From a virus: a stretch of DNA of 64,000 nucleotides. Where the stretch lies: UHGV virus genome UHGV-0311442; one strand, written 5' to 3'. The position numbers and the translations under genes are program-made. This document shows positions 1,850-59,458 of the stretch, piece by piece. Every line of letters starts with the position of its first letter. Position 1 is the stretch's first letter. The notes below the pieces were generated by a model that was not told the DNA's origin, ran no database searches, and saw nothing but the letters and a program-made list of their open reading frames with translations.

Positions 1850-1887
1850 GACAGGCTGCCTGCGGGCAGTTGTGTGTCCGTAGGTAA

Positions 1888-1925
1888 CCCCTCCCTGTAA
1901 TGGGGAGGGGTATCCATTTTATTTA
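1888..1925 (+). terminator. Rho-independent terminator
   Basis: GC stem cccctccc / gggagggg with 7-nt loop followed by T-rich tract; lies between stop at 1849 and RBS aggag at 1931. Confidence 0.55.
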
Positions 1926-1943
1926 AAAGTAGGAGTCTTTACG

Positions 1944-7127: not shown

Positions 7128-7167
7128 CGCCACGAGACAAGGACGTCTCGGATTAAGGAGAGTGGCC

Positions 7168-8367
7168 ATGGCCTCCATTGTATATCAGTACCCTTTAGAT
7201 TTAACGGGAACCCTAACCTCTAACGCCGTGGAGCGTCAGGTTACGTTAGGTACAGGTAAAGTTAACCGTGCGTTTGCTTTTCCTGACGGACCGTTTTATG
7301 CTGATACGTTCCGCTTGCGGGTTGCCAATCGACCCGACGCGACGTATGAACGCGGAACGGACTATGAGTTGATTTTTGCACACCCGGGTTACGAGAAATT
7401 GACGAAGAACCGGGAAGTGGTAATGGCGGTTGTTGTAACGAACACCGCGATTCCGACCGATATCACGGTATCGGCGCAAGTAGTCGGTGGTCCGCAGTCT
7501 GCAAACGTGACTGCGATAGAACAGGCGATTGCCGAGTTGAATCTCGATAATCGAACTGTTGGCTTTAAAGACTTGCGAAATGTGCCGGACACGTTTCCTT
7601 CGGCACCAACGTATAAAGACGTCGGCGATATTTACGGCTTCGAATATATCATTACAGTGCTCGCTGGCATCAAAGATGCGATAACGGCGGGTGATGCTGT
7701 ACAGCTTGAGAACATCAAAGCGATTCTCGAAAGCCTGAAAAACGATTTCCTGGACGCGCTGAACGCGCACATTAACGCCACGGGTAATGTCCACCATCTG
7801 GATATTCATCAGGTTAACGGGTTAACAGAAACGGAGATCCGTGCACTTATCCGTGACGTACAATCTGCCATCGATGCAACCATTACTGATATTAATGCGT
7901 TGAAGAAAGCAGACGAAGCGTTAGGAAAACGTATTGATGCTGTTGTCAAATCTTTGGAAGCGTGGAACGACCAACTTAACATCGTTGCCCAAAACTACCA
8001 GAAGATGGCATTGGCATTGGCGAACCTAAATTCGCTAGTGTTACAGTTACAGAAAAATATCAACGATCTGAACACCAAACTCAACCAAGCGATTCAGCGC
8101 ATTGCTGCGTTAGAACAACGGGGTAATGAGTCCGATCAGAAAATTGATAATCTGCAACAAAACCTGGATGCGCTTAAACAACAGGTTGCGAATAACACGA
8201 ACGCAATCAGTCAGGCGAATCAGAACCTACAAAACCATATTGCGGCGGATAACCCGCACACAGGTTATCTCCACAAGAAATACGGCGGTGTGGTTCAGGC
8301 TCCAGTGCACGTTAACGCTAACTTGACGTCCCGTGATGACGTTCAGGCAGAAGCGGGTACGAAATAA
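7168..8367 (+). CDS. Coiled-coil fibre protein (fibritin / tail-fibre-like)
   Basis: RBS aaggagag then ATG at 7168 (ORF-track start 7060 lies inside the upstream gene); C-terminal half is heptad-rich, Q/N/L coiled coil. Confidence 0.75.
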   Translation: MASIVYQYPLDLTGTLTSNAVERQVTLGTGKVNRAFAFPDGPFYADTFRLRVANRPDATYERGTDYELIFAHPGYEKLTKNREVVMAVVVTNTAIPTDITVSAQVVGGPQSANVTAIEQAIAELNLDNRTVGFKDLRNVPDTFPSAPTYKDVGDIYGFEYIITVLAGIKDAITAGDAVQLENIKAILESLKNDFLDALNAHINATGNVHHLDIHQVNGLTETEIRALIRDVQSAIDATITDINALKKADEALGKRIDAVVKSLEAWNDQLNIVAQNYQKMALALANLNSLVLQLQKNINDLNTKLNQAIQRIAALEQRGNESDQKIDNLQQNLDALKQQVANNTNAISQANQNLQNHIAADNPHTGYLHKKYGGVVQAPVHVNANLTSRDDVQAEAGTK

Positions 8368-8376
8368 CTTTATTAC

Positions 8377-8422
8377 AGGAGGAACTATGCTTATGGGCGT
8401 AGTCCTCCATTCTTTTTTATTT
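8377..8422 (+). terminator. Rho-independent terminator separating the fibre genes from the Cys-rich peptide genes
   Basis: Stem ggaggaactatgc / gcgtagtcctcc followed by ttcttttttatttt. Confidence 0.6.
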
Positions 8423-8434
8423 TAAGGATACGTG

Positions 8435-8830
8435 ATGGCGATCAGTGTTAAAAATGTACGTGACCGAATCACCAACGTAGAGAACCAAATGGCAACTGGC
8501 CCACGTGTTGATCCGCAAGTTGCGTCGAAAGCACATAATGCCGCCGACACTTTTTCGGGTTGGACGCCAAGTCGGTTAGACTGCGGGGGAAGCTGTAGCT
8601 GGACGTGCTCAAACGGTTGTACGCATGGCTGTACGAGTTGTTCGGGCACCTGTACGTCGGTGTGTGTAGGTAGCTGCTCCTCTGCGTGCGGTAACCAGTG
8701 TACTGGATGTAGTTCAACGTGTTCTGGTGGCTGTTCAGGTTGCAGTGGGACCTGTGGAGGTGCTTGCTCGGGCCGTTGTTCTACGGGTTGTTCTGGTGCT
8801 TGCTCCGGTGGCTGTTCTGGCCCAACCTAA
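8435..8830 (+). CDS. Cys-rich repeat peptide 1 (~131 aa, ~26 Cys in CxxxC / CxxC repeats of C-S/T/G); candidate RiPP precursor or crosslinked structural protein
   Basis: RBS aagga 6 nt upstream of ATG; N-terminal ~50 aa leader-like and Cys-free, then the motif Y/L-D-C-G-G-S-C-S-W-T-C-S begins the Cys repeat core. Confidence 0.75.
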   Translation: MAISVKNVRDRITNVENQMATGPRVDPQVASKAHNAADTFSGWTPSRLDCGGSCSWTCSNGCTHGCTSCSGTCTSVCVGSCSSACGNQCTGCSSTCSGGCSGCSGTCGGACSGRCSTGCSGACSGGCSGPT

Positions 8831-8840
8831 GAGGTGAAAA

Positions 8841-9239
8841 ATGGCAATTGGATTACCTGCGCTACAAGCGCGGCTAAATAACATTGACAACACTGCATTG
8901 AAGAATACGGGTGCAGTACAAAACTATATTCGTGGGAAAGCGACGAACAACGCAGACCTATTCGGTGGGCAAGCTCGCAACCACTATGACTGCGGGGGAA
9001 GCTGTAGCTGGACCTGTTCGAGCTGTTCTGGTGGTTGTACAGGGAACGCATCAGGCGGCTGTGGCTCTTCCTGTTCTGCAAACTGTGTATCAGGTTGTAG
9101 CGCGGGCTGTAGTGGATGTTCGAATACCTGTTCTGGTGGCTGCTCAGGAAGCTGTACGGGGAGTTGTTCTAACTCGTGTGTAGGAAACTGTTCTGCAGGC
9201 TGCTCTGGTGCTTGCTCCGGTGGCTGTTCTGGGAGGTAA
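8841..9239 (+). CDS. Cys-rich repeat peptide 2 (132 aa), paralog of peptide 1
   Basis: RBS gaggtg; shares the YDCGGSCSWTCS motif and a 29-bp identical 3' DNA segment (GCSGACSGGCSG) with peptide 1. Confidence 0.75.
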   Translation: MAIGLPALQARLNNIDNTALKNTGAVQNYIRGKATNNADLFGGQARNHYDCGGSCSWTCSSCSGGCTGNASGGCGSSCSANCVSGCSAGCSGCSNTCSGGCSGSCTGSCSNSCVGNCSAGCSGACSGGCSGR

Positions 9240-9241
9240 TT

Positions 9242-9448
9242 GTGATTAGCCTTAAGAACCTTCGTGATCGGTTAGTAACAGCGGAAGGGTATATTACGAC
9301 CGCTAACGCAAACAACTATATTGCAAACCAGGGCACCGTGTCTTCAACCAATAACCTTGCCGGTTTACCTTTAAGCCATTATAACTGTAACGGCGGATGT
9401 AGCTGGTCGTGCAGTGGTAGCTGTAGTAAAGGTGCGGGGGGAAGGTAA
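9242..9448 (+). CDS. Cys-rich peptide 3 (68 aa, GTG start), short paralog with 4 Cys
   Basis: RBS gggagg 5 nt upstream of GTG 9242; N-terminus ISLKNLRDRL parallels peptide 1 (ISVKNVRDRI); core YNCNGGCSWSCSGSCS. Confidence 0.6.
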   Translation: MISLKNLRDRLVTAEGYITTANANNYIANQGTVSSTNNLAGLPLSHYNCNGGCSWSCSGSCSKGAGGR

Positions 9449-9597
9449 CTAAGCCCTCCAGTGGTAGTATGTCTATTACGCAATAACCGAGTTAATCGTA
9501 CGGGTTTACTACTGAGTTTCAAGTTACCGGTAGGCAATGGTGCGGTGGTTTCTATACCCTGAATGTCCGTTTGACCGTGAAATAATTGGAGCAATCA

Positions 9598-10485
9598 ATG
9601 AAGAATGATTTACATTTAGCGTACAAAACAATTTTCAATCATCCACTTCACATTTCTTCCCCTGATTCCGTACGTGCACACTTAGCAGATGAAGTTCGTC
9701 TGTTGACTCAGTTGCCGGGCGAATGGCCTAAAGTGCGCGGACGTTTCTTTACCGATCGTAAAAACTATCGTGTGGAAAATACGTTTAAGATTCGTGATCT
9801 GACGGCAGAAAGTGTAGTGGTCTTTACCGGTGACTCCGAGTTGCGTGGTAAACTGGTTGCGGGTAAATATTTCTTTAGTGACGGGATTTTGAATAACTCC
9901 GTAGATATGGAATTGTTCTTTACCCCATTTGAAGAAATGGGCGCAAAACCAGTTGCCCGTCGTTGGTGGTCGCCGGATTACTTAGGCTCGTTCCCGTATT
10001 TCTTTACCCTGGTAACACCAGAAACGAAGAACTATTTCGATACGGAATCGTATATCGAAATTGAAGGGTACGAAGCGTTAGGGATTAATTGCTTAGCGGA
10101 TTTAATGGCGTATAGCTATAAGTTCGTGTGGGATCGTGAACGTTCCGTGTGGGTTGCCCTGACGGATGAACACGAAATTACAAAACGCATCCGTAAGCCT
10201 TGGATGCAGCATTTGATTCAAACGCGTATTGGCGAGCATCCGTCAACAGAAGCGGATCTGGCAAAACTCGTTAGTTTCTTAATGACGAAAGTCACGTTAA
10301 CTGACGAAGAGAAAGCAGCAGTGTCGGCGGTGTTGGACCGTAACGTAACGTTAGCGGATTTAGAACGTTTAAATGTCCGTTATAAAGACCTTAATCGTAT
10401 TTTGGAAGCGTATAACTCTCCATTCTTGTTAACCCCTGGTGCTAACGTAGACGACGATCCTTTGTTCGCCATTGATTATATTTAA
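9598..10485 (+). CDS. Hypothetical protein inside the Cys-peptide / radical-SAM cluster (possible accessory or recognition factor)
   Basis: ORF with RBS ggag 6 nt upstream of ATG 9598 (ORF-track TTG at 9586 overlaps the RBS). Confidence 0.65.
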   Translation: MKNDLHLAYKTIFNHPLHISSPDSVRAHLADEVRLLTQLPGEWPKVRGRFFTDRKNYRVENTFKIRDLTAESVVVFTGDSELRGKLVAGKYFFSDGILNNSVDMELFFTPFEEMGAKPVARRWWSPDYLGSFPYFFTLVTPETKNYFDTESYIEIEGYEALGINCLADLMAYSYKFVWDRERSVWVALTDEHEITKRIRKPWMQHLIQTRIGEHPSTEADLAKLVSFLMTKVTLTDEEKAAVSAVLDRNVTLADLERLNVRYKDLNRILEAYNSPFLLTPGANVDDDPLFAIDYI

Positions 10486-10506
10486 AAACGACCGGAGTCA
10501 CCTGCA

Positions 10507-11430
10507 ATGACAACCAATGCAGAACCAAGGTTATCGAATCGTTTATACGATAAACCCACCGTATTGTCCGTAGTCGCTACGTCCAAGTGTAACCTGGATT
10601 GTAGCTTCTGCGGTGGAGCCTATTACATGAATCGTGAAGATTCTCCGCGAGAGTTTCAACGTGAGCGAATTTTGGAAGCGCTGGAAGCTAATCCAACCAT
10701 TACCGAAATTCAGTGGACGGGTGGTGAGCCATTACTGGCAACCCGTAAAATTGAGGCGTTTGTTGACGAATTAAAAGTGATTCGTCCAGAACTCAAACAC
10801 CAGTTGTATACCAATGGCTTAAAGATGCGTAAATCGCATCTCCCGTTGCTAAAACAGTTTGACAATGTCTACGTTAGCATCGATGGGTTTAAGTCGTCTG
10901 AGCGCCCGTTTATGCGCTTTATTGACGAAGGCTGTTACGAAGCACTGGAAACGATCTACGAGCTGGATAATGTCCAGACTTGGGGTGTCCTGACACGGGA
11001 CCGTTTAGGGGACAAACGCTGGCACGAAGATATTATTCAGCTGCACAGCGCGATTTACCATTACGGTTTCCGTGCAATGACGTTACTCTTAGATGCGAAA
11101 ATGCCAAAACCTTTATCGCCTGACCACGTCATGAACTTTATTTACGGCTACTATCAGGTTCAGGACAACATTGAACGTCTGAATGTAGTAAATGGACGTG
11201 AATGTGGCTTTACGGTAAGTAAAGTGTTTGAAGAAGGGTGTAACGTTTGCAGCGAAAGTCTTTGGATTAATGCAGACGGTGGTGAGCACCAACTCCAGAA
11301 TGCACCTAACGTTCTGGAATCGGGATGTAACCAACTGGCCTTCTCTATCGGTGTAGAGGCGTACGAATATATTCGTCGCGTAGTGATGGCAGGACGTAAT
11401 AGAGGGGCGGCAAATGAGCCAAGCAAATGA
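10507..11430 (+). CDS. Radical SAM enzyme (CxxxCxxC), candidate peptide-modifying maturase
   Basis: N-terminal CNLDCSFCGG cluster; GGEPLL SAM-binding motif; YTNG and SIDG motifs; four C-terminal Cys (possible twitch-like auxiliary cluster). Confidence 0.8.
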   Translation: MTTNAEPRLSNRLYDKPTVLSVVATSKCNLDCSFCGGAYYMNREDSPREFQRERILEALEANPTITEIQWTGGEPLLATRKIEAFVDELKVIRPELKHQLYTNGLKMRKSHLPLLKQFDNVYVSIDGFKSSERPFMRFIDEGCYEALETIYELDNVQTWGVLTRDRLGDKRWHEDIIQLHSAIYHYGFRAMTLLLDAKMPKPLSPDHVMNFIYGYYQVQDNIERLNVVNGRECGFTVSKVFEEGCNVCSESLWINADGGEHQLQNAPNVLESGCNQLAFSIGVEAYEYIRRVVMAGRNRGAANEPSK

Positions 11431-12736
11431 ATTCCCTAAGCAGTTAACGTATCAGATCGTAACCAACCTTTCGTGTAACCTGGACTGCGAATATTGTTAC
11501 GAACGTAAGTACCCGCGTAACAACAAAGCGGCCGACATTGTTGATTTCTTACACGCCTGTTTTGAACGTGATAAAAACGAACCGAATGTTGAAGTTATTA
11601 TCGACATTATCGGCGGTGAACCGTTCATGCAGCCTAAGTTGCTGCTGGCAGCGTTTGAAACCGCAGAGCAGTTGTGTAAAGAACACAACCGTCCGTTTAT
11701 GTTTAGTATCTCCACGAACGGGACCTTGTTAGATCGTCCGTTGAACCGTGAGATTGTAGAACGTTGGAAAGACAAACTTTCGGTTGGGGTTTCGATTGAT
11801 GGCTTGCCTGAGTCCCATGACCGTTATCGTATCTTCACAACAACGCGCCAGGGTTCTTACGAAGCCGCAGTACGTGGCTATAATTACTTAAAAGAGGTTG
11901 GCATTGCAGAACTCGGCGTAAAAGCGACCTTTACGTTAGAAACACTGCCGTTCTATGCTGCAGGGATGAAGTCATTAATTGACATTACTGGCGGTGGGAC
12001 AATTTCTGGGAACGTAACCTTCGAAGACGTTATGCCACGTAGCATGGCGACGTCAATCGCTTTACAGATGATGGATGTGATAGATTATTGGGTTGAGAAA
12101 GGATTACACACCAACCCACGTAATATCTTATCGCACATCATTCCAGAAGGGTTGGATTTCGATACGATTTGGGAACCGAACTGGCGTGACCAGTTACTGT
12201 ATAATGACACCGTACGGTTGAACCCAGAACGTTTACGTCCGTTCTGTGGGACGTTAACGCACATGACGTGCTTAGGATTTGACCGTAAGATCTTTGGCTG
12301 TAACCGCTTTATGTCAACGGTAACGTCGCGTTCTGCGGTGTTTGAGTTGGTAGGTCGGGAATTCGTCAGTCTGGACAACGGTAAATTGTTAGAAGAGATT
12401 CAAACGCAATATACCAACTACCCAGAGACCTGTTTAGGTTGTCCGATGAAACACGCTTGTGGTAGCTGTGCGGCGGCTTCTTACGAGAACGGGGAAGGAA
12501 CGTTAGAAGACCGTAAAGCGTATCACGCTGAACGTCGTCAGTGTGGCTGGACGACAGCGAAACTGATGGTGGCGGAATACTGGAAACAGAAGATGGGTAC
12601 GACGTCAGCAAAAGCGTTCCACGACACGAGCATGTGTTATTGCCCACGCTGTGTTCGTGAACGTGCCCAAAAGGAAAAATTATTAAGAGAAGCCAAAGAT
12701 GAAACCAATTCTGATCAACAATATTACGAAGCGTAG
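11414..12736 (+). CDS. Radical SAM enzyme with SPASM-like C-terminal domain, candidate peptide maturase
   Basis: CNLDCEYCY cluster; GGEPFM; STNGTLL; SIDGLPESHDRYR (SxDGxxxxHDxxR as in PqqE/anSME/AlbA-type enzymes); C-terminal CLGCPMKHACGSC plus further Cys; start overlaps upstream rSAM gene by 17 nt. Confidence 0.85.
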   Translation: MSQANEFPKQLTYQIVTNLSCNLDCEYCYERKYPRNNKAADIVDFLHACFERDKNEPNVEVIIDIIGGEPFMQPKLLLAAFETAEQLCKEHNRPFMFSISTNGTLLDRPLNREIVERWKDKLSVGVSIDGLPESHDRYRIFTTTRQGSYEAAVRGYNYLKEVGIAELGVKATFTLETLPFYAAGMKSLIDITGGGTISGNVTFEDVMPRSMATSIALQMMDVIDYWVEKGLHTNPRNILSHIIPEGLDFDTIWEPNWRDQLLYNDTVRLNPERLRPFCGTLTHMTCLGFDRKIFGCNRFMSTVTSRSAVFELVGREFVSLDNGKLLEEIQTQYTNYPETCLGCPMKHACGSCAAASYENGEGTLEDRKAYHAERRQCGWTTAKLMVAEYWKQKMGTTSAKAFHDTSMCYCPRCVRERAQKEKLLREAKDETNSDQQYYEA

Positions 12737-13271
12737 AATTCGACTTCTGGATAAGTTTCTGGAAAACAGTAAGCTATTCGGTTGTTATGTGGTGATTAAC
12801 GGTGAAGATTTTACCGATGACGTAAAACGCTTACTGATTCGTCACGGTGTGACTGTAATCATCCCAATGTACTGCACCGAACTTACTGACCTGTCGGTCG
12901 CGGAAATTGAAAAACGTAACCCAGGGTTTGAAGAACGGGTATTGGATTTCCCACGTCACAAAATTGCGTTTCTACGCCGCTCTTTAAGCGAACCCAGCGC
13001 AGAATCTATCACTGTGTTGGCATTGTCCTTCCCCGGCATTACTATCTTCGCAACACGTAACCCGAACTCACCGATTGATGGGTTTTACGATGAGCGAGAG
13101 AAATTTAATACCGTGATTTTTCCTGAGCTAACGCCAGAAGAATGCCAGGGTATCCGTATCGATTGGGAATCGGACTTCGACACAAGATTCCGTCATATCG
13201 ATTTTGAACTGTTAATCGAATTAGGGTTGATTAAAGGAGACGATGAATGTCTGCTACTGGTGAAGGCTTAA
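12699..13271 (+). CDS. Hypothetical protein (cluster-associated)
   Basis: ORF overlapping the 3' end of the rSAM gene; same operon. Confidence 0.55.
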   Translation: MKPILINNITKRRIRLLDKFLENSKLFGCYVVINGEDFTDDVKRLLIRHGVTVIIPMYCTELTDLSVAEIEKRNPGFEERVLDFPRHKIAFLRRSLSEPSAESITVLALSFPGITIFATRNPNSPIDGFYDEREKFNTVIFPELTPEECQGIRIDWESDFDTRFRHIDFELLIELGLIKGDDECLLLVKA

Positions 13272-13918
13272 CGAAAGAAGAAATCCGTCGCCGTTATTTT
13301 GCGCACGATTTACCGATTGACCGTCATGGTAACTACATGGAGAAAATCGGTAGTGAAGATCACGGCCGTACAGGGTTTTGTGCGTTACTGCACTATAAGT
13401 TGATTGATGGGATGTCTGATCGCGAAGCATTGGAACAAATGCGTAACTACGACATGTCTGAAATCGAAGCACGGTTTACGCTACAGAAAGCGAAAGACTT
13501 TGTTAACGACACGTTGGGGATTGACCTGGAAGAAATTCGTGCAGGTTTACGTTCCACGGTGCGGTACATCTTTACCGATGTTCAGAAAATTCTAAGCGCT
13601 CTGGAATTCCGTTATCAGGATGCGCGCTATGCTGAGATTCAGGTAGGTGATTTCACTTTCCAGGCAGATGAGAAGTCACAGGTAGCACTGAGTCGTTATA
13701 TCCAGTCAGAAACTGCGCCAGCGTATTGGTTAACGGCTAACAACACCCGTATCGAACCGTTTACGTTAGAACAGTGCAAGACGTTGCTGGCAGCAATCGT
13801 TGAGCGCGATCAAAGACTACACCACGCAATGTCTGAGCAGAAAAGAGAAGTCAGAGCTTGGGCTGAAGCACGTGATTACGATTCAATTAAAGCGTTTGCG
13901 TTAGAGCAAGGGCTGTAA
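13247..13918 (+). CDS. Hypothetical protein (cluster-associated)
   Basis: RBS aaggaga 6 nt upstream of ATG; last gene before the bidirectional terminator. Confidence 0.65.
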   Translation: MSATGEGLTKEEIRRRYFAHDLPIDRHGNYMEKIGSEDHGRTGFCALLHYKLIDGMSDREALEQMRNYDMSEIEARFTLQKAKDFVNDTLGIDLEEIRAGLRSTVRYIFTDVQKILSALEFRYQDARYAEIQVGDFTFQADEKSQVALSRYIQSETAPAYWLTANNTRIEPFTLEQCKTLLAAIVERDQRLHHAMSEQKREVRAWAEARDYDSIKAFALEQGL

Positions 13919-13939
13919 TCGACAGCGAAAAAAAATAGT

Positions 13940-13981
13940 ATACCTACCTCCTATTACGGGAGGTAGGTATTTTTATTTTTT
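13940..13981. terminator. Bidirectional rho-independent terminator between convergent genes
   Basis: Perfect 12-bp stem atacctacctcc / ggaggtaggtat flanked by an A-run upstream and a T-run downstream. Confidence 0.65.
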
Positions 13982-13982
13982 C

Positions 13983-14513
13983 TTAGGACGTAAAACCGTC
14001 CAGCTCACCGTTGGTGGTGGCCAGGTCAATACGATTATCAACAACTTTCGGCGTAATTACGAAAGTTGCCATTACACCTGGTTTATAACGGAGGTTCTTT
14101 TCAGTAACGGTGCACGTTACCGTACGCAGAGTGACGTTTTCATGTTCGTCTTTCTGGTCTTCGGTGTTGTACACAACGTCGCCTGGTGCGATAGCATCGT
14201 TCGGTTTAACTTTATTGATGTAATATTGTAACCAAGCGCGCAGTTCATTTTCTTGAACCCAGCGAGACAGATCGTCAGTTAGTTCAATACGGCCTACAAC
14301 ACCCGGTTCCAGACGATCGTAATGCAGTTCGATTGCACCTTTGAAATTCTCAGAACCTGGTAGTGCAGTCATGGTAACTTTGGTATTCTTACCTTCGCCT
14401 TCCAGCGCAGTAGGGAGACCAAAGGACACTTCTTTATCAGTTACCTGATGTGGTAGCTCAGTGTTAGCAGCATTATAAAGCGCGACCAACATCATCTGGT
14501 TAGTAGCGGCCAT
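13983..14513 (-). CDS. Paralog family A protein (176 aa), probable fibre-associated virion protein
   Basis: Tandem paralog of 14579..15109; both share architecture and C-terminal GELDGFT. Confidence 0.7.
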   Translation of the reverse strand: MAATNQMMLVALYNAANTELPHQVTDKEVSFGLPTALEGEGKNTKVTMTALPGSENFKGAIELHYDRLEPGVVGRIELTDDLSRWVQENELRAWLQYYINKVKPNDAIAPGDVVYNTEDQKDEHENVTLRTVTCTVTEKNLRYKPGVMATFVITPKVVDNRIDLATTNGELDGFTS

Positions 14514-14548
14514 TATCTTAAATCCTCAATAGTACGAGTTAAAGAAAT

Positions 14549-14574
14549 ATCGGGGAGGTTACCCCCCCCCCGAT
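14549..14574 (-). terminator. Hairpin terminator containing a C10/G10 homopolymer
   Basis: Stem atcgggg / ccccgat with a 10-nt C run (14562-14571); T-rich on minus strand after the stem. Confidence 0.45.
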
Positions 14575-14578
14575 TTAA

Positions 14579-15109
14579 TTATTCTTTAGGAGACGGTGCG
14601 GTGAAGCCATCCAGTTCACCTTCCAAACCGCTCAGTGCTACTTTCTCAGGAGCCGGAGGAGTAACTTTATACGTCGCGACAGTACCAGGCAGGAACTTCA
14701 AGTGGCCAGCCACAACCGTTACCACGTAAATGGTTTTGCCTTCTTCTTCACGAGAAATAGTTTGCAGGTCGTTTTCACCGAACTCGTCATCGGTGTACCC
14801 TTTCTCAGCCATGGCTGCGTTAACTTTCGCCAGGATCTTCGTTGGTGAATCGAAATCGGTAGTAGGTGCAGTTACTTCAACTTCACCAACGATGTCGCAG
14901 GAAAGACGAGTATAGTGGAATTCTTTCTCGCCTTTGAAGTTCTGGCTTTCTGCCTTGGCGGTCAGAGTAATTTTAGTGTTGCGGCCAGCTTCTCCGGTGA
15001 ACTCAGCGACAGCACTAAAATTAACATCATTTACAGTCAACTTAGAAGCAGTTTGGTTGTTTTTAGCAATTACAATCTCGATAAGCTGCTGTTGAAAAGT
15101 TTTAGCCAT
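14579..15109 (-). CDS. Paralog family A protein (176 aa)
   Basis: Paralog of 13983..14513. Confidence 0.7.
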   Translation of the reverse strand: MAKTFQQQLIEIVIAKNNQTASKLTVNDVNFSAVAEFTGEAGRNTKITLTAKAESQNFKGEKEFHYTRLSCDIVGEVEVTAPTTDFDSPTKILAKVNAAMAEKGYTDDEFGENDLQTISREEEGKTIYVVTVVAGHLKFLPGTVATYKVTPPAPEKVALSGLEGELDGFTAPSPKE

Positions 15110-15248
15110 TGTTTTACCTCGTAAGTAGTATGGGTGGTTTGCATAGTATTGTTCGGATTATAGAAGTGTTGTTAATAGTTATGACAGACAGCAGTAAGGG
15201 TTGTCTGTAAAATTATTATTTTTTAACTTTTTATAGAAGGGTGAAAAC

Positions 15249-15728
15249 ATGCTAAAACGTTTTCTACTTGTTGTAACTGCAGCACTTTCGTTGGCAAGCT
15301 GTGCCCTACAACCCACCGCTAACGGTCAATTCTCGACTGTACCCGTAGAGCCACACGACATGGTTATTTACACCTGTATGGGTGTTGAGCAAGATTTTGC
15401 AAATTACAAACCTGTCGTCAGTTCGACTAACCTAATGTTAGGTTCAGTAACTGTAGTCGATACTGGTGCTAACTGGGTAGCCACTTGGCCAAACGGTAAG
15501 ATTGAATCACCACAACTTTATAAAGATCTATTAGGTAAAGTTAATGGGAATATCGATCCTATCACGGGACAACGTTACTACCGTGTAAATGGACTACTTT
15601 CAAAAACGCCAACATTTGCGTATTCTACTTTAGAATATAAAACGGGCGATGGTAAAGGCATTACTTTCTTCCACTGTAAGGAAGGTGTAGCTCCTGACAG
15701 TGGAACAATGCTCCATCCTGCGGAATAA
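15249..15728 (+). CDS. Predicted lipoprotein (159 aa), moron-like gene on the opposite strand
   Basis: Signal peptide MLKRFLLVVTAALSLASC with lipobox L-A-S-C; RBS gaagggtg; own terminator downstream; only plus-strand gene within the minus-strand block. Confidence 0.7.
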   Translation: MLKRFLLVVTAALSLASCALQPTANGQFSTVPVEPHDMVIYTCMGVEQDFANYKPVVSSTNLMLGSVTVVDTGANWVATWPNGKIESPQLYKDLLGKVNGNIDPITGQRYYRVNGLLSKTPTFAYSTLEYKTGDGKGITFFHCKEGVAPDSGTMLHPAE

Positions 15729-15737
15729 TAAAAACTA

Positions 15738-15773
15738 CCCTACTCCCGATAAGGAGTAGGGTATATTGATTTT
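15738..15773 (+). terminator. Rho-independent terminator of the lipoprotein gene
   Basis: Stem ccctactcc / ggagtaggg followed by tatattgatttt. Confidence 0.6.
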
Positions 15774-15846
15774 AACCGTCAAATCGTGCGTAAAACGCAT
15801 TCTAAGCGTCTTTATACAAAATAAGGTATAAACGCCTTAGAAATAG

Positions 15847-16362
15847 TTAAATCTCGACTAAAGCGCTCCAATCGATTGGTTTTTGCTTAACCACTTTCAC
15901 AGTACCACGATTTGGTGACCAGAAAGTAATGTTAGGTTGATTACGAACGTCGATGTGTAACCAGCTGATGTCACATTCAATAAAGTGAATGAACGGAAAC
16001 TCATCAGGGTTAGCAGCGATATAGTCGTGAACCTGTTTTACGGTGCTATCCAACAACGTTGCATCAATTGCGTTACCGAATTTGTGTTGACTTCCTGAAT
16101 CGGCGTAAAGCTGTAACGCACGTTGTTTATAACTACCGCCCTTAGGCTTTTCTTGATTAATAAAGAAATCTAAAGTTCTTAGTCCGCGTTGTTGCGCAGC
16201 GGTTGAGTTAATCACCATTCTACCGAAACGGTTACGAATCTGTTGCAGTGAAATCATTAGCAACGGGTTCATAAACCGGATTGCAGAATCGCCGTATTTG
16301 GCAATATAAGACTGTGGTACTAACTCTCTGAGTTTAAAATTACTCGGATTTGGATGAAACAT
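15847..16362 (-). CDS. Peptidase M15-family cell-wall hydrolase (L-Ala-D-Glu / D-Ala-D-Ala peptidase-like)
   Basis: SQHKFGNAID (H-x3-G-x-A-x-D zinc-ligand motif) and downstream WLHIDV histidine, as in T5-type endolysins and VanY-like enzymes. Confidence 0.6.
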   Translation of the reverse strand: MFHPNPSNFKLRELVPQSYIAKYGDSAIRFMNPLLMISLQQIRNRFGRMVINSTAAQQRGLRTLDFFINQEKPKGGSYKQRALQLYADSGSQHKFGNAIDATLLDSTVKQVHDYIAANPDEFPFIHFIECDISWLHIDVRNQPNITFWSPNRGTVKVVKQKPIDWSALVEI

Positions 16363-17014
16363 CTTCCCTCCCAGACAGAAAAGCGCGTTTGATGTTCAGG
16401 TATTTGACATTAACGGGCTGATCTGTGGTGATATCAATACGTTCGTGGTCAGGGATTGCAGGTTCCTTAAACTCGCGAACGAATAAATAGTTTCGATTAT
16501 AATCTAACGTACGAAACGCGTTAGTGTTGTAGGATGGCTTTGCATTAGGATCTACGTAGGAATCCCAGCCGAATTCAACGACGGCCTTATAAAATGTTTG
16601 GCAGATATAAGGTGAGATTTCCAACGACTGCATAATACGCAGGAACGTTAAATCAGAGAACTCTTTATCGATAATACGCGAAACGTTACCACCCGGTGTC
16701 ATGGGATAGCTACGCTCCGTGTTACATTTTTGATAGAGTAGGTCGTGAATGCAGGCCGCAGGTGCCCACGGTCCGTCAGGATGGAAAATTCCCTGGAGGT
16801 GTTCAGGAATTGACGCTAAATCGGTAACGAACCCTTTCGGTGCTGTTAACCACAGTTGCGTGTCAGGCAATACACCCGTTAAATAAACCGCACGGTCTAA
16901 GTGTACGTGGTCGTGATAAATCTCACGTAACGTAAACGGATAATGGTAATCCTCCGTTAATACAAACCACTTATTGTCTAAACGTTTATATTGAAACTTC
17001 TCCATTACCCACAC
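16340..17014 (-). CDS. Hypothetical protein; TDLASIP...HDLLY motifs are reminiscent of DUF1353-type proteins
   Basis: ORF; probable ATG at 17005 with RBS ggaagg upstream. Confidence 0.6.
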   Translation of the reverse strand: MWVMEKFQYKRLDNKWFVLTEDYHYPFTLREIYHDHVHLDRAVYLTGVLPDTQLWLTAPKGFVTDLASIPEHLQGIFHPDGPWAPAACIHDLLYQKCNTERSYPMTPGGNVSRIIDKEFSDLTFLRIMQSLEISPYICQTFYKAVVEFGWDSYVDPNAKPSYNTNAFRTLDYNRNYLFVREFKEPAIPDHERIDITTDQPVNVKYLNIKRAFLSGREDVSSKSE

Positions 17015-17020
17015 CTTCCC

Positions 17021-17125
17021 TTATAGAAACCAGAAAAATTCGCATCCACGCTTTTCGTCTTTACGTTTTCGTCCAGACGTTAACGCTTTCCACAATAGTG
17101 CTAAGAGTTTAGCAAACCAGTTCAT
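17021..17125 (-). CDS. Small ORF (34 aa, MNWFAKLLALLWKALTSGRKRKDEKRGCEFFWFL), possible lysis-associated membrane peptide
   Basis: ATG overlaps the endolysin stop codon (ATGA coupling); amphipathic/hydrophobic N-terminus and basic C-terminus; below the 60-aa ORF-track cutoff. Confidence 0.3.
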   Translation of the reverse strand: MNWFAKLLALLWKALTSGRKRKDEKRGCEFFWFL

Positions 17126-17712
17126 TTTACTAACCCCGCCTTCACTACATAATCCGGCATTTCCCTGAACACACGTGCGTACCAGCCGTAAGCGAATTTT
17201 TCATTCTTCTTACGCTTTTCGGAGATTTCTGTGTAGTAGGTTACCTGGTGTGAGATTAACGCAAAGATTAAGATGCCTAACCCCTCGTCTTTACGGTAAT
17301 TCAGATAAGCATTCAGGGCACCTAGCGTTTTAGGTCCCATACCGCCGTCGGTGTCAATATCTGCGTAAAGTTTCCCTTCGTTATTTAAAACGTTCAGAAT
17401 ACGTTGTAACGATTTCACACAGTTAACGCGGCCAGAGTTAATAGCAAAATCAAACATCCGGTCTGCGAGTAAGGGTGAAATAGCTAAAATCTCATCGAGT
17501 TTAAGTTTCTTCCACCAACCGCGATCGTAAATATCAAACGCCTGCGCACGGGTCAGATCCTTCATTTTTCCTTTATACCCGTATTCGCGTGCAGTTGTTA
17601 GTGTTACACCGTGACAGGTTTCCCCACCTTTATCGTCAGGGTCGTTTACGTACCCGCCTTCTAAATCTGTTTTCGAAGCAATAATACCTTCTTTAGTCCA
17701 ACGTTCGGCCAT
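17122..17712 (-). CDS. Endolysin: GH108-family muramidase with C-terminal peptidoglycan-binding domain
   Basis: N-terminal EGGYVNDPDDKGGETCHGVT signature of glycoside hydrolase family 108; C-terminal region typical of the PG_binding_3-type domain. Confidence 0.8.
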   Translation of the reverse strand: MAERWTKEGIIASKTDLEGGYVNDPDDKGGETCHGVTLTTAREYGYKGKMKDLTRAQAFDIYDRGWWKKLKLDEILAISPLLADRMFDFAINSGRVNCVKSLQRILNVLNNEGKLYADIDTDGGMGPKTLGALNAYLNYRKDEGLGILIFALISHQVTYYTEISEKRKKNEKFAYGWYARVFREMPDYVVKAGLVK

Positions 17713-17773
17713 TTTGTTTAACTCCTCTTTTACACAAAAAAAGAAAAGAGGGTGGGATTACCCCACCCTGTCG

Positions 17774-18250
17774 TTATTTCTTCTTAGCGCGTGATGGCTT
17801 AGCTGGCGGTGTTTCAACAGTCGGTTTACGCGCAACGCGCACTGTAAAACCACCGACCCAGGTTAGGCACTCAGGACGGAAGAAAATGCCGTGCTCGATT
17901 GCACTGCCGCCCAGCGGTAACTCACCAACCTGCTCTACCCATACGTCGTCTTCAGTAAGGGTTAAGCCATACTGTTCGTTAATTACAGGCAACAGGTCCG
18001 CAGTCGTGGTGGCTGTTTCAACTAACAGTTTCGGCAATACGTTGAGGAAATACAAACCGGCATCGATGCGGTTATACTGGAACGTTTGCTTATTAGCATA
18101 ACCGAGATTCTTAACCGCCACAACCGTAATTTCGGTATTGTACGCACCGGTACTTACGACGGGCTCACCCAATGTAACTTTGGCGGTGTCGAACTCAGCG
18201 TCTGGGTTAGCCTTTTTAATAAGGTCGAAGATAGTTTCTTGACTGGTCAT
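17774..18250 (-). CDS. Paralog family A protein (158 aa)
   Basis: Shares the FQYNRID and ADLLPVINEQYGLTLTEDDV motifs with the other family members. Confidence 0.65.
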   Translation of the reverse strand: MTSQETIFDLIKKANPDAEFDTAKVTLGEPVVSTGAYNTEITVVAVKNLGYANKQTFQYNRIDAGLYFLNVLPKLLVETATTTADLLPVINEQYGLTLTEDDVWVEQVGELPLGGSAIEHGIFFRPECLTWVGGFTVRVARKPTVETPPAKPSRAKKK

Positions 18251-18263
18251 TACTGTAATCCTC

Positions 18264-19112
18264 TTAATCTAAGAATCCCGGTAAGACCGAATTAGTTTTA
18301 GCTAATTCAATCTTCGACTTCGGACGATCGGTACCGTTAAAGTGGATTAACAGATTACCGGTCAGGTTAGCACACAGTCCACTGAGTGCGAGTACCAGCA
18401 CACGTGTGTACTTTGTGTTTGCGCCTTCGTAACCTGCGGTAGGCCCATCGTAGATAACCTTAGCACCGTAGAGGTTATTAGCAGCGTTCTTAGGTACGCT
18501 TACCCATATCTCATCAACGACGTTAGTCAGTTTAGTGGCTAACTCAGCCAGGTCGACGGTGTCGTTAATGGTAATCGGATCAAGGTAATCTTTTTCTGCT
18601 GTGAAATCAATTGGATAAGAATAAACCGCAGCGTTACCTTTCTTAGTGGACGGATACTCTACCAGGTTTTCTAATTGAGTAACAGGTAACAGTTTAGCCA
18701 GATCAATAGGATCGCGTAGCGTAAGTGTTACTTCGCCACACCACTCGTAGGATTTCTCGTTAGCGGTAAGCTGATGGGTTTCACCTTCAACTTTCGCATC
18801 AACGATATCCGACGGCAGAATATTTAAATCGTATTTTGCATTGATTGCATTAAGCAAATCTGCAGCGGTTACAACACCGTCGTTACCAAACACCAACTCA
18901 CCTGTTAGGTATTCGGGCAAATTACGACGATGGTAAGTCACAGTTAAAGTAGTAGACTCATCGCCTTTGAGTTTAGAAGTCAGAACCACCTGGGTATCAA
19001 CCCCAGTACCAGTAGGTTCGCCGATATCAACATCACTGAAGGTCAATGGCGGAACAATATTGTTTTCAGTGTTGATGAGTTTTAGCAGTTTCTGTTTTGA
19101 CGTAAGAGACAT
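18264..19112 (-). CDS. Paralog family A protein (282 aa, extended C-terminus)
   Basis: TYHRRNL and AADLLNAINAKYDLNILPSDIV motifs. Confidence 0.65.
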   Translation of the reverse strand: MSLTSKQKLLKLINTENNIVPPLTFSDVDIGEPTGTGVDTQVVLTSKLKGDESTTLTVTYHRRNLPEYLTGELVFGNDGVVTAADLLNAINAKYDLNILPSDIVDAKVEGETHQLTANEKSYEWCGEVTLTLRDPIDLAKLLPVTQLENLVEYPSTKKGNAAVYSYPIDFTAEKDYLDPITINDTVDLAELATKLTNVVDEIWVSVPKNAANNLYGAKVIYDGPTAGYEGANTKYTRVLVLALSGLCANLTGNLLIHFNGTDRPKSKIELAKTNSVLPGFLD

Positions 19113-19244
19113 CGCGTTAACTCACAATAAGTAAAAAGGTTTAAGAGGTCGTTTTACATCCCTCAGCCAGCATAGGAATAGTCGAGTAGAGGGTAAGCAA
19201 AGTAGTGTCGAAATAACAAAAAAGAAAAGGGAAAGAAAATTAAT

Positions 19245-19272
19245 TCCGCTATAGACCGAAGCCTATAGCGGA
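19245..19272 (-). terminator. Rho-independent terminator
   Basis: Stem ccgctatag / ctatagcgg; T-run on minus strand after the stem. Confidence 0.55.
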
Positions 19273-19278
19273 GAGAGG

Positions 19279-19710
19279 TTAGCGAACGTTATGTGCTAAG
19301 TACATCAGAGAACGAGTGTCGGTGTCACGATAAGTTTGTGACATCTGGCTCAGTAACTTGTTGGCGGTAGGATCGCTATAAAGACGTTTTAACCATTCGT
19401 CAACCATTTCTGGTACAGTGTCGACCAGCAGTGGATAGTTAAGATTTTCCAGTGTGTATTCAACGAATTCGTGCATCAGATTCTGGTCACGATGCATGGT
19501 GTCACCTAACTCACCTGCGGGATACTCTTCACGAGGACGTTTACCCCAGCTGCAAATCTCCATATAGGCCGTGTTTACAATCTCTTTGTATTCCTCTAAC
19601 TTAAGTAAATCGAAGCCAGCATTCGGGCGGCAGAAACCTACTAAAACGCTCAGAGCAATAGGGTTGTTACGAACGTAGTTACGGATTTCATCATTTAATA
19701 CGAAAAACAT
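19279..19710 (-). CDS. Hypothetical protein (paralog of 20914..21342)
   Basis: Similar N-terminus and length to 20914..21342. Confidence 0.65.
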   Translation of the reverse strand: MFFVLNDEIRNYVRNNPIALSVLVGFCRPNAGFDLLKLEEYKEIVNTAYMEICSWGKRPREEYPAGELGDTMHRDQNLMHEFVEYTLENLNYPLLVDTVPEMVDEWLKRLYSDPTANKLLSQMSQTYRDTDTRSLMYLAHNVR

Positions 19711-19779
19711 TTTAATACTCCTTTAGGTAAATACAATAATGGAGGGGTGGTTTACCACCCCTTGTACGATTTTAGTTAA

Positions 19780-20892
19780 TTAACGAAATTTTTGACAAGC
19801 AGGGCAATCGCAGCCTATGCCAGATGATATTTCTCTAAAGATCGCGTCGATCGAGTGCTCATTATTCTTAAGAAAACGAGCTCCCGCCAAGTCACGCAGA
19901 TGAGTTTTTAACTTTCCGATAATACCGGGTTCATAGTTGAGTAGAATGGTAAGTGTATTGTCTGTGTAAGTCCACTGACGGACTTTCTCAGGAAACCAAC
20001 GAGCGATATCACGCATAAACTTATCGGCATCTTCTTTCCCAATAGTAGTGATTGTCAGAAGACGTAGACGATTGTCAACAATCTCATTAATGAGGTTGCT
20101 AATTTCTTCGTCAAGAGCAGCGTCCCACCATTTCCATTTAATGATGAGTTTTTCGCCCTCGAGTTTAGTCTCTACTTTGGTAGGATAGAAAGCTGTCAAG
20201 GTATCATTAATCGCTTCGGCCTCTGGGCCAGTGTAAGTAAAGGAATACGGTTCTTCGAACCATTTAATAACGTCAGGATCATTATCAACAAGCACGGTTA
20301 GCGTGCCGTCGACATAATTAGACCCACGAATTTTCTCCTTGTATTCGTGAACAGCACTACGCATGAGTTCATCAGCGGTATCTTTTCCGATACCATGAAT
20401 CGAAATAAGTCGAACGGCATCGTTATCGATCAGCTCAGCGATAGAACTAATTTCTTCCATGAGATTACGATCGTCTTTCTTCAATCGAACGACGATCTTA
20501 TCGTTATCCGAATAAATGCCTAAATCGTCGGGATAGAGGGTCTCTAACGCTTCTTTAATTTCCTTAATCTTCTTACCTTCGTACCAGAGGACGTGTGGTT
20601 CGTCTTTCTGCTGTTCTTCTACTTTCGGTTGTTCAGTCTCGGTCGTTTCCACCCGAGTGTTCGTGGTACCTTCTGCTGGGTTGAGTAACTCACCGATTTC
20701 TTTCGCGATAGTGTCGCAAAGATAATCGTTGCAGTGAGTCCAGTAGAATACGATGCTTTCATCGTTGACCTGCTCTACACGGAAATGTACACCTTTATCC
20801 AGGAATATGCGATAAAGTTGATCAAGTAACTGTGCTTCAGGAACCGGACGGATTTCAGTTTTAACGAGCGGGGTAATTTCGATATTAAACAT
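19780..20892 (-). CDS. Hypothetical protein with internal tandem domain duplication
   Basis: Two ~110-aa repeats (..RLISIHGIGKDTADELMRSAVHEYKEKIR.. and ..RLLTITTIGKEDADKFMRDIARWFPEKVR..). Confidence 0.7.
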   Translation of the reverse strand: MFNIEITPLVKTEIRPVPEAQLLDQLYRIFLDKGVHFRVEQVNDESIVFYWTHCNDYLCDTIAKEIGELLNPAEGTTNTRVETTETEQPKVEEQQKDEPHVLWYEGKKIKEIKEALETLYPDDLGIYSDNDKIVVRLKKDDRNLMEEISSIAELIDNDAVRLISIHGIGKDTADELMRSAVHEYKEKIRGSNYVDGTLTVLVDNDPDVIKWFEEPYSFTYTGPEAEAINDTLTAFYPTKVETKLEGEKLIIKWKWWDAALDEEISNLINEIVDNRLRLLTITTIGKEDADKFMRDIARWFPEKVRQWTYTDNTLTILLNYEPGIIGKLKTHLRDLAGARFLKNNEHSIDAIFREISSGIGCDCPACQKFR

Positions 20893-28785: not shown

Positions 28786-28820
28786 TGTAACCTCCAATTT
28801 TTAAACCAATACTCTTCCGG

Positions 28821-29106: not shown

Positions 29107-29622
29107 TTAATGATCTCCGAAGGTTAATGCACAATTATCTGCGGTAACGATTAAATCGTCGTCTTTTGTTACTGCGGCTTCTTCACTGTTACCGAAAACC
29201 AGAACAGAGAATTGACCTTTATAACCTAATGAATTAGGTGATACCTGTAACGTTACCGCGTCTTTTCCTACAGTGAAAGAATCATCTGTTAGATCTTCAG
29301 CTTGTAAGTTACTGCCACAAGCTGCGTTAATCGCTTCGATTAAATCGTGTGTGGTAAACCCTTCCCCGGCTACTTTTACCAGAATAGGTTGCTGGTTTAA
29401 CCACCGCTCTGCGGTTAAACGGTTGTAATAGATCTGCAACGTTCTGTTTCCAGGACGCTTAATCTTTACAACGGCAGTGGTATCACGATTCATTTCTTCA
29501 GTAGGATTTACGTTGCTGAACTCAACCTCGTTTTCTTGCAGATCGAGCTGAAGGTCGTAGTTGATCAGCGATATAACCATGTTAGTTGAAGTTAATGATA
29601 AATCTGGTGTGAATTGCCCCAT
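29107..29622 (-). CDS. Paralog family A protein (~171 aa)
   Basis: PDLSLTS...LINYD...IYYNRL...HDLIEAINAACGSNLQAEDL motifs; RBS ggagg before ATG 29622. Confidence 0.65.
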   Translation of the reverse strand: MGQFTPDLSLTSTNMVISLINYDLQLDLQENEVEFSNVNPTEEMNRDTTAVVKIKRPGNRTLQIYYNRLTAERWLNQQPILVKVAGEGFTTHDLIEAINAACGSNLQAEDLTDDSFTVGKDAVTLQVSPNSLGYKGQFSVLVFGNSEEAAVTKDDDLIVTADNCALTFGDH

Positions 29623-30224: not shown

Positions 30225-30240
30225 CTACCCTCCTTTTTAA

Positions 30241-59447: not shown

Positions 59448-59458
59448 CGGAGACCCCA

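Follow-up and report, generated by a model that had tools for sequence, protein, structure and literature searches.

What are the small open reading frames (ORFs) that recur across a 64,000-nucleotide stretch of the virus genome UHGV-0311442, and what would their products do in the virion? We analysed the whole of this stretch, referred to below as the window. A sequence-only reading of it had picked out seven ORFs with shared motifs and had proposed that they encode fibre adaptor or assembly proteins, each beside a fibre or tailspike gene and expanded along with the fibre repertoire. The seven ORFs are a true paralog family of DUF7941 virion structural proteins, and the family itself is not new, as it has already been described under two names, Pfam DUF7941 and Paralog family B of phage SPN3US. 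All seven are open on the minus strand with exactly the limits proposed for them, and the starts of 29107-29622 and 35842-36402 agree with the gene lengths called in the orthologues of relatives. The copies are named here by their start coordinates.

18264-19112, minus strand: long DUF7941 paralog of 282 amino acids (aa); Pfam 182.3 bits over profile positions 5-275 of 276.
17774-18250, minus strand: short DUF7941 paralog of 158 aa; Pfam 105.2 bits, PHROG 1037 at 1.4e-31, and E = 2.3e-19 with an independent hidden Markov model (HMM) described below.
14579-15109, minus strand: short paralog of the phrog_4862 subtype, 176 aa; phrog_4862 at 3e-42, Pfam 37.8 bits over the N-terminal positions 4-94.
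13983-14513, minus strand: short paralog of the phrog_4862 subtype, 176 aa; Pfam 38.4 bits.
29107-29622, minus strand: short paralog of the gp122 subtype, 171 aa; Pfam 62.9 bits, phrog_2935 at 1.7e-26.
35842-36402, minus strand: short paralog of the gp122 subtype, 186 aa with a GTG start; Pfam 68.4 bits.
56729-57256, minus strand: short paralog of 175 aa; Pfam 50.5 bits, phrog_2935 at 2.5e-48.

The claim of a paralog family with shared motifs was borne out by several lines of evidence. Every copy exceeded the gathering threshold of the Pfam model PF25613 (DUF7941), which is 27 bits, with the model aligning to only the N-terminal 70-90 residues of 13983 and 14579, and the PHROG matches of the seven fell into the inter-related families 1037, 2935, 3589 and 4862, three of which are annotated as 'virion structural protein'. 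The independent HMM was derived from 45 long homologues, a set which includes 18264 and its orthologues and none of the six short window copies. When the 227 ORFs of the window were searched with it, the six short copies came right after 18264 at E = 2e-19 to 1e-4, followed by ORF 51858-52520 at E = 0.14 and by noise from 2.7 upwards; the seven copies are the top seven of all window ORFs in a model which, 18264 apart, draws on homologues from outside the window. BLASTP within the window gave two strong pairs, 13983/14579 (1e-22, 33% identity) and 29107/35842 (2e-33, 34% identity), together with weak links of 3e-6 to 1e-2 among 17774, 18264, 29107, 35842 and 56729, and no connection of 13983 and 14579 to these other five copies. 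Alignment of the 13983/14579 profile with the profile of the rest by hhalign reached a probability of 95.9% (E = 6.5e-9, 155 columns).

A MAFFT alignment of the seven copies gave a consensus with L-x-x-L-I-N, V-x-F, N-T-x-x-x-T and Y-x-R-L, along with T-x-x-D-L-x-x-x-I-N-A-x-x-G-x-x-L-x-x-x-D. The last of these had been taken for a C-terminal block common to all copies; it lies at about residues 80-105 of about 175, which is mid-protein, and 13983 and 14579 do not have it. The real common C-terminal element is a linker motif, L-x-G-F. It is exceedingly improbable that the shared motifs are chance or compositional similarities among unrelated small ORFs. Such an explanation can draw on the failure of BLASTP alone to link 13983 and 14579 to the rest, on several weak pairwise E values (1e-3 to 1e-2) and on the finding that the R of Y-x-R is the sole residue besides the start Met which is invariant across the seven. 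It was rejected on the strength of the Pfam scores, the hhalign result, the structure matches given below, the clean separation of the seven from the other 220 window ORFs by the independent HMM and the presence of orthologues in an experimentally recognised family of SPN3US.

The family size of seven stands for the copies listed, and the count is probably low by one because a further ORF is likely a divergent member:

51858-52520, minus strand: probable divergent eighth member, 220 aa as listed, with the likely true start at Met9 (position 52496).

The Pfam scan gave no match for this ORF. An HMM of the seven copies matched its residues 9-86 at E = 1.4e-5, hhalign returned a probability of 83% (E = 8e-6, 68 columns), and the long-homologue HMM aligned two stretches of it, one of them over the linker. 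In its N-terminal subdomain Y-x-R-L is replaced by Y-x-K-L, and a linker-like motif, HIGQIITNKTLDGLNY, is located at window positions 51966-52013 (T-L-D-G-L-N-Y). It is the orthologue of SPN3US gp91 (45% identity), a tail-dependent virion protein found in tailed particles only (SPN3US Table S2). These similarities are suggestive, and 51858-52520 is probably an eighth copy. No further members and no N-terminal DUF7941 modules on large proteins of the window were found beyond it. ORF 62922-63968 gave a weak BLAST match to 18264 (E = 0.024) that was unsupported by two HMMs (E = 1.2 and 4.1) and was set aside. The ORFs 15249-15728, 15847-16362, 16340-17014, 17122-17712 and 19279-19710, considered as degenerate members, proved unrelated (GH108 endolysin, DUF1353, phrog_894 and unknowns).

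A globular N-terminal domain (NTD), about 140 residues long, is common to the seven copies; in six of them it is followed by a flexible segment carrying a short hydrophobic motif, L-x-G-F in four copies and L-T-F-G/E in two. In 18264 the NTD (about residues 1-135) is joined by a linker (136-160) to a C-terminal domain (CTD, about 160-260) and then to a disordered tail (267-282); the linker holds the motif IDLAKLLPVTQLENLVEYP (window 18651-18707) and the tail a second one, KIELAKTNSVLPGF (window 18273-18314, SVLPGF), so that this copy corresponds to the NTD-linker-CTD type of Goslar gp22 with an extra C-terminal motif. The copies 13983, 14579 and 56729 are of the NTD-linker type of Goslar gp23, with tails containing RIDLATTNGELDGF (window 13992-14033), KVALSGLEGELDGF (14603-14644) and the linker-type KLASLVTKLALDGF (56756-56797), respectively. 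A different conserved tail, with L-T-F-G/E, ends the other pair, as DLIVTADNCALTFG(DH) in 29107 (window 29116-29157) and as AIFCIGDDAVLTFE followed by an acidic end in 35842 (35884-35925). In 17774 the NTD leads into a basic tail rich in Pro and Lys, KPTVETPPAKPSRAKKK (window 17777-17827), in which the L-x-G-F motif is absent.

The tails of the short copies could be matched to the linker of the long ones. By hhalign the tail of 13983 (RIDLAT--TNGELDGFT) aligned with the 18264 linker (PIDLAKLLPVTQLENLVEYPS), and in the HMM of the long family the tail of SPN3US gp83 (RKLAQLVTKRALDG) aligned with the linker consensus kndLeelvvndiLde; judged from these alignments, the C-terminal tails of the short copies are homologous to the inter-domain linker of the long copies. 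The tail motifs are kept in orthologues although the preceding residues vary. The pattern [LM][DEPNQ]GF occurred within the last 25 residues of six of the 227 window ORFs, against 0.26 expected from shuffling.

Structure models were made for 18264 and 13983 with AlphaFold2 (AF2). The model of 18264, from a 49-sequence alignment, had a mean predicted local distance difference test (pLDDT) of 79, with low values in the linker at residues 151-155. Its sole significant Foldseek match in the PDB was the NTD of phiKZ gp127 (9xqd_0; E = 3.2e-6, probability 1.00, target-normalised template modelling score 0.66), and the fold of residues 1-150 of gp127 (PDB 9XQD) is thereby found in the model. Sequence comparison led to the same protein, by phmmer with 18264 (9xqd_0, E = 4e-7, CTD included) and by the profile of the seven copies (9xqd chain 0, PHIKZ127, E = 1.6e-8). 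The model of 13983 (pLDDT 88.8) has its secondary-structure elements in the order of the 18264 NTD, and in BFVD it gave 56 Foldseek matches to viral proteins at E <= 1e-3, among them virion structural proteins of RAY, Phabio, PhiPA3, Eowyn and PhiEaH1 as well as longer fusion proteins.

The family is large. A profile search of 1.84 billion cluster representatives retrieved 2953 clusters at E <= 1e-3 and 1366 at E <= 1e-10, and the best 150 cluster matches were mostly proteins of 260-320 aa (NTD and CTD), with fusions to LamG-like and other domains also among them. One representative (P0157) comprises three tandem NTDs at residues 3-144, 175-314 and 347-485, joined by QLAGFIYNGSP and IMDGFVYNNESP and ending in IMTFDGG; the layout of another (P0154) resembles it. 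By the gene-fusion or 'Rosetta stone' argument, such covalent NTD-linker-NTD concatemers lend independent support to a head-to-tail arrangement of separate subunits. In a 1496-aa protein (P0165), Lys/Asn-rich and resembling a Mollicute surface protein, a DUF7941-like N-terminal subdomain is repeated at least eight times in tandem. DUF7941 has also been reported in Spiroplasma Spaid-like proteins in a 2026 paper (PMC13375240), and a claim that the module is exclusive to chimalliviruses is probably too strong.

To judge from its protein sequences, the window comes from an SPN3US/phiEaH2-like, phiKZ-like (Chimalliviridae) jumbo phage. By nucleotide no close genome was found, as megablast of positions 13000-20000 against GenBank phages returned one 450-bp match at 76% identity. 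A wedge protein encoded at 57264-59459 shares 83% identity with its phiEaH2 counterpart and 76% with the SPN3US one; near-identical proteins are carried by contigs 221-227 kb long, from assemblies of Salmonella, E. coli and Shigella and from metagenomes. SPN3US is the closest characterised relative, and the gene order around the copies is as here. The HMM of the seven matched its proteins gp83 (2.7e-37), gp122, gp138-145 and gp148, all at E <= 1.5e-10. The positional orthologues are gp83 for 56729 (64% identity), gp122 for 35842 (45%) and gp138 for 18264 (45%, BLASTP 1e-72); 29107 is 32% identical to gp122, and the nearest SPN3US relative of 17774 is the N-terminal part of gp141 (39%).

The two phages differ in copy number. 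SPN3US has 20-21 copies (gp83, gp138-154, gp160 and the candidate gp122), including a 17-gene tandem array, as compared with seven or eight here, and the window has a second gp122-type copy, 29107, which is lacking in the examined part of SPN3US. At the array locus two genes (18264 and 17774) are followed by the endolysin gene in the window; a 224-kb relative (L018) has at least 12 copies at the same locus, plus two short ones ending in ELDGF. The array is highly plastic and has contracted in this phage. In L018 the region 4581-20523 holds ten tandem long DUF7941 genes, fusion members of 460 and 509 aa and two short convergent copies; between the fusion members stand pairs of genes that do not encode DUF7941, with products of about 295-340 aa similar to SPN3US gp146/147/149. 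The fusion members and short copies of L018 end in (A/G)ELDGF and the CTD-bearing copies in LHYN.

Paralog family B of SPN3US was described in 2016-2017 with 17-20 members, as possibly the largest phage paralog family, and was classed by its authors as head proteins (Thomas et al. 2016; Ali et al. 2017; PMC10052503). In Goslar, ten DUF7941 proteins have been reported, of which gp22 and gp23 are present in about 580 and 2140 copies per virion; purified gp22 self-assembles into filaments of micron length, and in AlphaFold3 (AF3) models the disordered linker of one protomer, with the CTD if present, docks on the NTD of the next, head-to-tail (bioRxiv 10.64898/2026.04.21.720040). The authors proposed a 'DUF7941 fibre cloud' anchored on the peripheral baseplate and counted three phiKZ members, gp126, gp127 and gp143 (bioRxiv 10.64898/2026.04.21.720040). 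SPN3US is not cited in the Goslar preprint; the connection of DUF7941 with Paralog family B was therefore made here, by HMM, and it joins two literatures that are unconnected in the preprint.

The Goslar proteins and the window copies belong to the same Pfam family, share both architectures and occur in multiple copies partly clustered by the portal, wedge and spoke genes. They differ in that three of the ten Goslar copies are fused to carbohydrate-binding, hydrolase or leucine-rich repeat (LRR) domains, whereas the window has no such fusion and its enzymatic and adhesin genes are separate neighbours. Identity between the two sets is low and is seen by profiles only, and filament formation has been shown for Goslar gp22 only. 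In the cryo-electron microscopy atlas of phiKZ, a band of gp139 dimers starts at the wedge gp128 and ends at gp127, which is present once per star lobe and was modelled at the edge of the fibre-attachment platform, at the baseplate periphery (PMC13250141). The likeness of gp127 to the window copies extends to sequence and NTD fold, and to its gene, which is encoded directly downstream of wedge gp128, beside the portal. The differences are that in phiKZ the gene of the spoke protein gp139 is not a neighbour, as it is here, that gp127 stops at its CTD and has no L-x-G-F tail, and that the motif is missing from the wedge tail.

The corresponding structural genes of the window adjoin 56729:

57264-59459, minus strand: baseplate wedge protein of 731 aa; phmmer to 9xqs_C (PHIKZ128) at E = 1e-82.
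55849-56736, minus strand: spoke/band protein (DUF7208); Pfam 334.5 bits, phmmer to 9xpg_A (PHIKZ139) at E = 1e-33.

The former is the homologue of phiKZ gp128, SPN3US gp82 and Goslar gp35, and the latter of phiKZ gp139, Goslar gp32 and SPN3US gp84. An assignment of 57264-59459 as the major capsid protein, from size and position, was rejected on account of its homology to the phiKZ gp128 wedge, the SPN3US capsid protein being gp75. Copy 56729 is encoded between wedge and spoke, with a divergent portal gene (59459-62176) next to the wedge gene, and the spoke gene directly follows it; the proteins encoded on its two sides are those that touch a DUF7941 protein in the phiKZ baseplate. In SPN3US, phiKZ, Goslar, Phobos, Special G, PCH45, Totoro and PA1C, the wedge gene has a DUF7941 gene as its immediate downstream neighbour. 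The portal-wedge-DUF7941-spoke order of the window is that of SPN3US, and DUF7941 directly after portal and wedge is also found in Goslar and phiKZ.

We consider it reasonably likely, with moderate confidence, that the copies are subunits of flexible external filaments, assembled head-to-tail by linker docking and in part anchored at the outer baseplate, which serve host encounter and of which the gp122-type pair is linked to receptor-binding proteins. The linker of one protomer would dock onto the NTD of the next, and the paralogs would chain head-to-tail into flexible homo- or hetero-filaments outside the virion. Some of these filaments may be anchored at the outer baseplate, at the end of the gp139-like spoke protein, and they would raise host encounter and binding, with the 29107/35842 pair probably linking to or cooperating with the receptor-binding proteins of the cassette described below. 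Polymerisation of these particular copies, L-x-G-F as their docking element and a role in host recognition are all inferred. The family is more likely a filament subunit than a chaperone or an adaptor for classical fibres, because most of its orthologues are abundant and stoichiometric and because purified Goslar gp22 forms filaments alone. Orthologues have been detected by mass spectrometry in the virions of SPN3US and Goslar, and SPN3US gp141 and gp160 are among the most abundant virion proteins (SPN3US Table S2). The fusion of family members to glycoside hydrolase, carbohydrate-binding, LRR or LamG-like domains also speaks for an external, host-facing role.

Several observations weigh against anchored filaments, and the most serious of them also bear on an alternative placement. 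The relevant data come from the tailless SPN3US mutant 255(am107), in which gp83, gp138-154 and gp160 have an equal or higher normalised abundance than in the wild type (head/wild-type ratios of 1.06-1.67) and in which wedge gp82 (0.018) and spoke gp84 (0.056) are lost (SPN3US Table S2); a second tailless mutant, 64_112(am27), had the same outcome. Most of the SPN3US orthologues can therefore co-purify with capsids in the absence of a tail or baseplate. Either a large part of the family is located on the head or neck, or self-assembled filaments may co-purify with heads, and on account of this conflict our confidence in baseplate filaments is held at a moderate level. On the structural side, phiKZ gp127 was docked from an AF3 model into a map of about 4.4 A as one copy per star lobe (PMC13250141), and the Goslar baseplate showed no DUF7941 density, the 'fibre cloud' being a proposal of the preprint (bioRxiv 10.64898/2026.04.21.720040). 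Within the window, 17774 is without the motif and 29107 and 35842 carry another one; the 13983 model gave no significant Foldseek match in the PDB, phiKZ gp127 included, and its fold-level membership therefore rests on the BFVD models.

That the copies are components of the head or neck, either as capsid decoration or head fibres or as internal proteins packaged and ejected with the DNA, is accordingly an alternative to be considered, and we regard it as unlikely. Apart from the tailless particles, it is favoured by the label 'Head ejection?' given to gp141 and gp160 (Ali et al. 2017) and, weakly, by ORF 48659-49030, the homologue of SPN3US gp97, of which the C-terminal L-E-G-F could be a docking site on the head side. 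The position of gp127 at the baseplate periphery in the phiKZ atlas (PMC13250141) argues otherwise, and hydrolase, carbohydrate-binding, LRR and LamG-like fusions make little sense inside a capsid. Family B is not among the eight SPN3US head proteins listed as ones that the prohead protease cuts, and the major ejection proteins gp53 and gp54 are (Ali et al. 2017). SPN3US gp91, gp122 and gp237 are tail-dependent, and micron-long filaments could plausibly co-purify with, or stick to, tailless heads in caesium chloride gradients. ORF 48659-49030 (minus strand) encodes 123 aa ending in VKAVLEGF, where SPN3US gp97, a low-abundance 'Head' protein, ends in AAVVAGF; it is among only six window ORFs with a C-terminal [LM]xGF, which may be a coincidence.

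The adaptor proposal turns on the neighbourhood of the copies, and the statement that each lies beside a fibre or tailspike gene holds for two of the seven, 35842 and 29107. These two bracket a T-even-like cassette of non-member genes:

31079-35639, minus strand: T-even-like long tail fibre; PHROG tail-fibre matches and Peptidase_S74.
29721-31032, minus strand: two gp38-type adhesins, 30241-31032 with GP38 and Gp38_N and 29721-30224 with Gp38_N.
26659-28797, minus strand: SASA-family carbohydrate esterase with DUF6645, 712 aa (Pfam).

Copy 35842 lies immediately upstream of the long fibre gene, adjoining its 1190-aa ORF, and 29107 lies downstream of the gp38-like adhesins, which it adjoins, and upstream of the nearby SASA esterase. 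Elsewhere the neighbours are of other kinds. In the region 13983-19112 the order is 18264, 17774, a GH108/PG_binding_3 endolysin, a DUF1353 protein, two unknown ORFs, 14579 and 13983; 17774 and 18264 have the endolysin and an unknown ORF as neighbours, and next to 13983 and 14579 are an unknown ORF and a DUF4376 protein. In the relatives the flanking DUF7941 pair is kept while the cassette varies, with one or two adhesins of differing length and either the esterase or a 206-aa protein (L004, L006 and L007). The position of 29107 is the same in all three, and a 186-aa orthologue of 35842 is in place in L004 and L007. In L004 the esterase gene starts 4 nt past the DUF7941 stop, and in L006 and L007 the 206-aa protein takes its place.

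We judge it quite improbable that the copies are fibre adaptors or assembly factors, one for each neighbouring fibre or tailspike and expanded in step with the fibres. The conserved bracketing of a variable cassette by 35842 and 29107 is in its favour, as are the spacing of DUF7941 and esterase genes in L004 and the fusion of DUF7941 to such domains elsewhere (again a 'Rosetta stone' argument). SPN3US gp122 is a trace protein found in tailed virions only, along with the fibre proteins gp123 and gp124, with 22 spectral matches counted in wild-type virions as against none in heads (SPN3US Table S2), and phiKZ gp127 is located on the fibre-attachment platform (PMC13250141). Five of the seven copies, however, are not next to a fibre gene, none of the seven matched a fibre chaperone or assembly family in Pfam or PHROG (Tfa/Caudo_TAP, T4 gp38-type or gp57A-type), and the chaperone- and adhesin-type domains of the window (Gp38_N/GP38, Peptidase_S74, DUF4376, DUF1353) reside on separate neighbouring genes. 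The abundance of the main paralogs far exceeds what a 1:1 role would call for, and one of them forms filaments alone. Across the loci examined the array ranges from two copies to at least 12-17 between relatives, without a matching change in fibre genes, and copy number does not visibly track fibre number. What survives of the sequence-only reading is a paralog family of virion proteins with a link to the host-recognition apparatus; a chaperone or one-to-one adaptor function is disfavoured, and an adaptor-like role is plausible for the gp122 subtype (29107 and 35842). Modular docking adaptors, such as the N-terminal tailspike modules of Ackermannviridae/CBA120 and G7C gp66, use small modules and short docking segments to mount more than one exchangeable receptor-binding protein at a single site of attachment. 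Their complexes are branched and defined rather than long high-copy filaments, and their likeness to DUF7941 is conceptual: general Pfam and PDB fold searches showed no sequence or fold likeness of the window copies to adaptors of the CBA120/G7C type.

Returning to the filaments and their anchoring, a new lead came from the wedge protein itself. In 57264-59459 the non-homologous C-terminal tail, which lies beyond the part conserved with phiKZ gp128, contains a linker-like motif, WALNEQVKINDLEGF, at window positions 57288-57332. The tail reads KINDLEGFTLDQLPK here (wedge-tail peptide WALNEQVKINDLEGFTLDQLPK) and DRDMDGFRLDQLPK in SPN3US gp82, and the motif, of the form L-x-G-L/F(-W), resembles the DUF7941 linker. 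It occurs once here and once in SPN3US, three times in tandem in Goslar gp35 (residues 705-753), four times in Special G and six times in Totoro, with a degenerate copy in Phobos, and the PCH45 locus (L013) is among those noted with the motif. It is absent from phiKZ, PA1C, OBP, RSL2 and Aphrodite1, and the Goslar preprint makes no mention of it. The number of wedge motifs bears no simple correlation to that of DUF7941 paralogs (3 and 10 in Goslar, 1 and 21 in SPN3US, 0 and 3 in phiKZ).

We tentatively suggest, as a possibility of lesser likelihood, that a hydrophobic residue followed after six to eight positions by L-x-G-F/L is a portable docking peptide that sets filament assembly, and that the wedge tail is an anchor or nucleation point of DUF7941 chains. 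On such a scheme the motif-less 17774 would cap chains, 18264 with its two motifs would branch them, and the L-T-F-G variants 29107 and 35842 would recruit the fibre/adhesin cassette; the L-E-G-F of 48659-49030 might explain co-purification with tailless heads. An anchor on the wedge tail alone cannot explain the SPN3US head data.

Nucleus-forming jumbo phages attract interest for phage therapy and anti-defence biology, and in their virions DUF7941 proteins rank with the most abundant components. The location and function of the family are disputed, being placed in the head in SPN3US and in a baseplate-anchored 'fibre cloud' in phiKZ and Goslar. The window offers a compact natural variant, with seven or eight copies as against the 20-21 of SPN3US and with subtypes that are easily told apart, and two of its copies bracket a swappable host-range cassette. 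The linker motif, which is also found on the wedge tail, provides a concrete mutable handle on the building and anchoring of filaments.

Some minor features of the region may also be recorded. The cassette is a T-even-style host-range cassette in a chimallivirus, with a gp37-like fibre tip bearing Peptidase_S74, adhesins and an esterase. Its fibre gene is here divided between the overlapping ORFs 32067-35639 (1190 aa) and 31079-32170 (363 aa), where the relatives L004 and L007 have a single fibre ORF of 1476-1477 aa; by tblastn the frame changes near window position 32107, at about residue 1217, which could be due to an indel from sequencing or assembly, to a genuine inactivating mutation or to programmed frameshifting. 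Positions 15848-16301, the one part of 13000-20000 that matched a GenBank phage by nucleotide, have 76% nucleotide identity to the Salmonella phages STsAS and SPAsTU and lie within ORF 15847-16362 (phrog_894, annotated as 'endolysin'), beside the genes for the GH108/PG_binding_3 endolysin and the DUF1353 protein; these three genes together interrupt an array that is pure DUF7941 in SPN3US. A radical S-adenosylmethionine (SAM) gene at 11414-12736 on the plus strand (phrog_1802, E = 1e-114) is situated among the virion structural and fibre genes, between large phiKZ gp131-like fibre proteins (119-8367) and the DUF7941 cluster.

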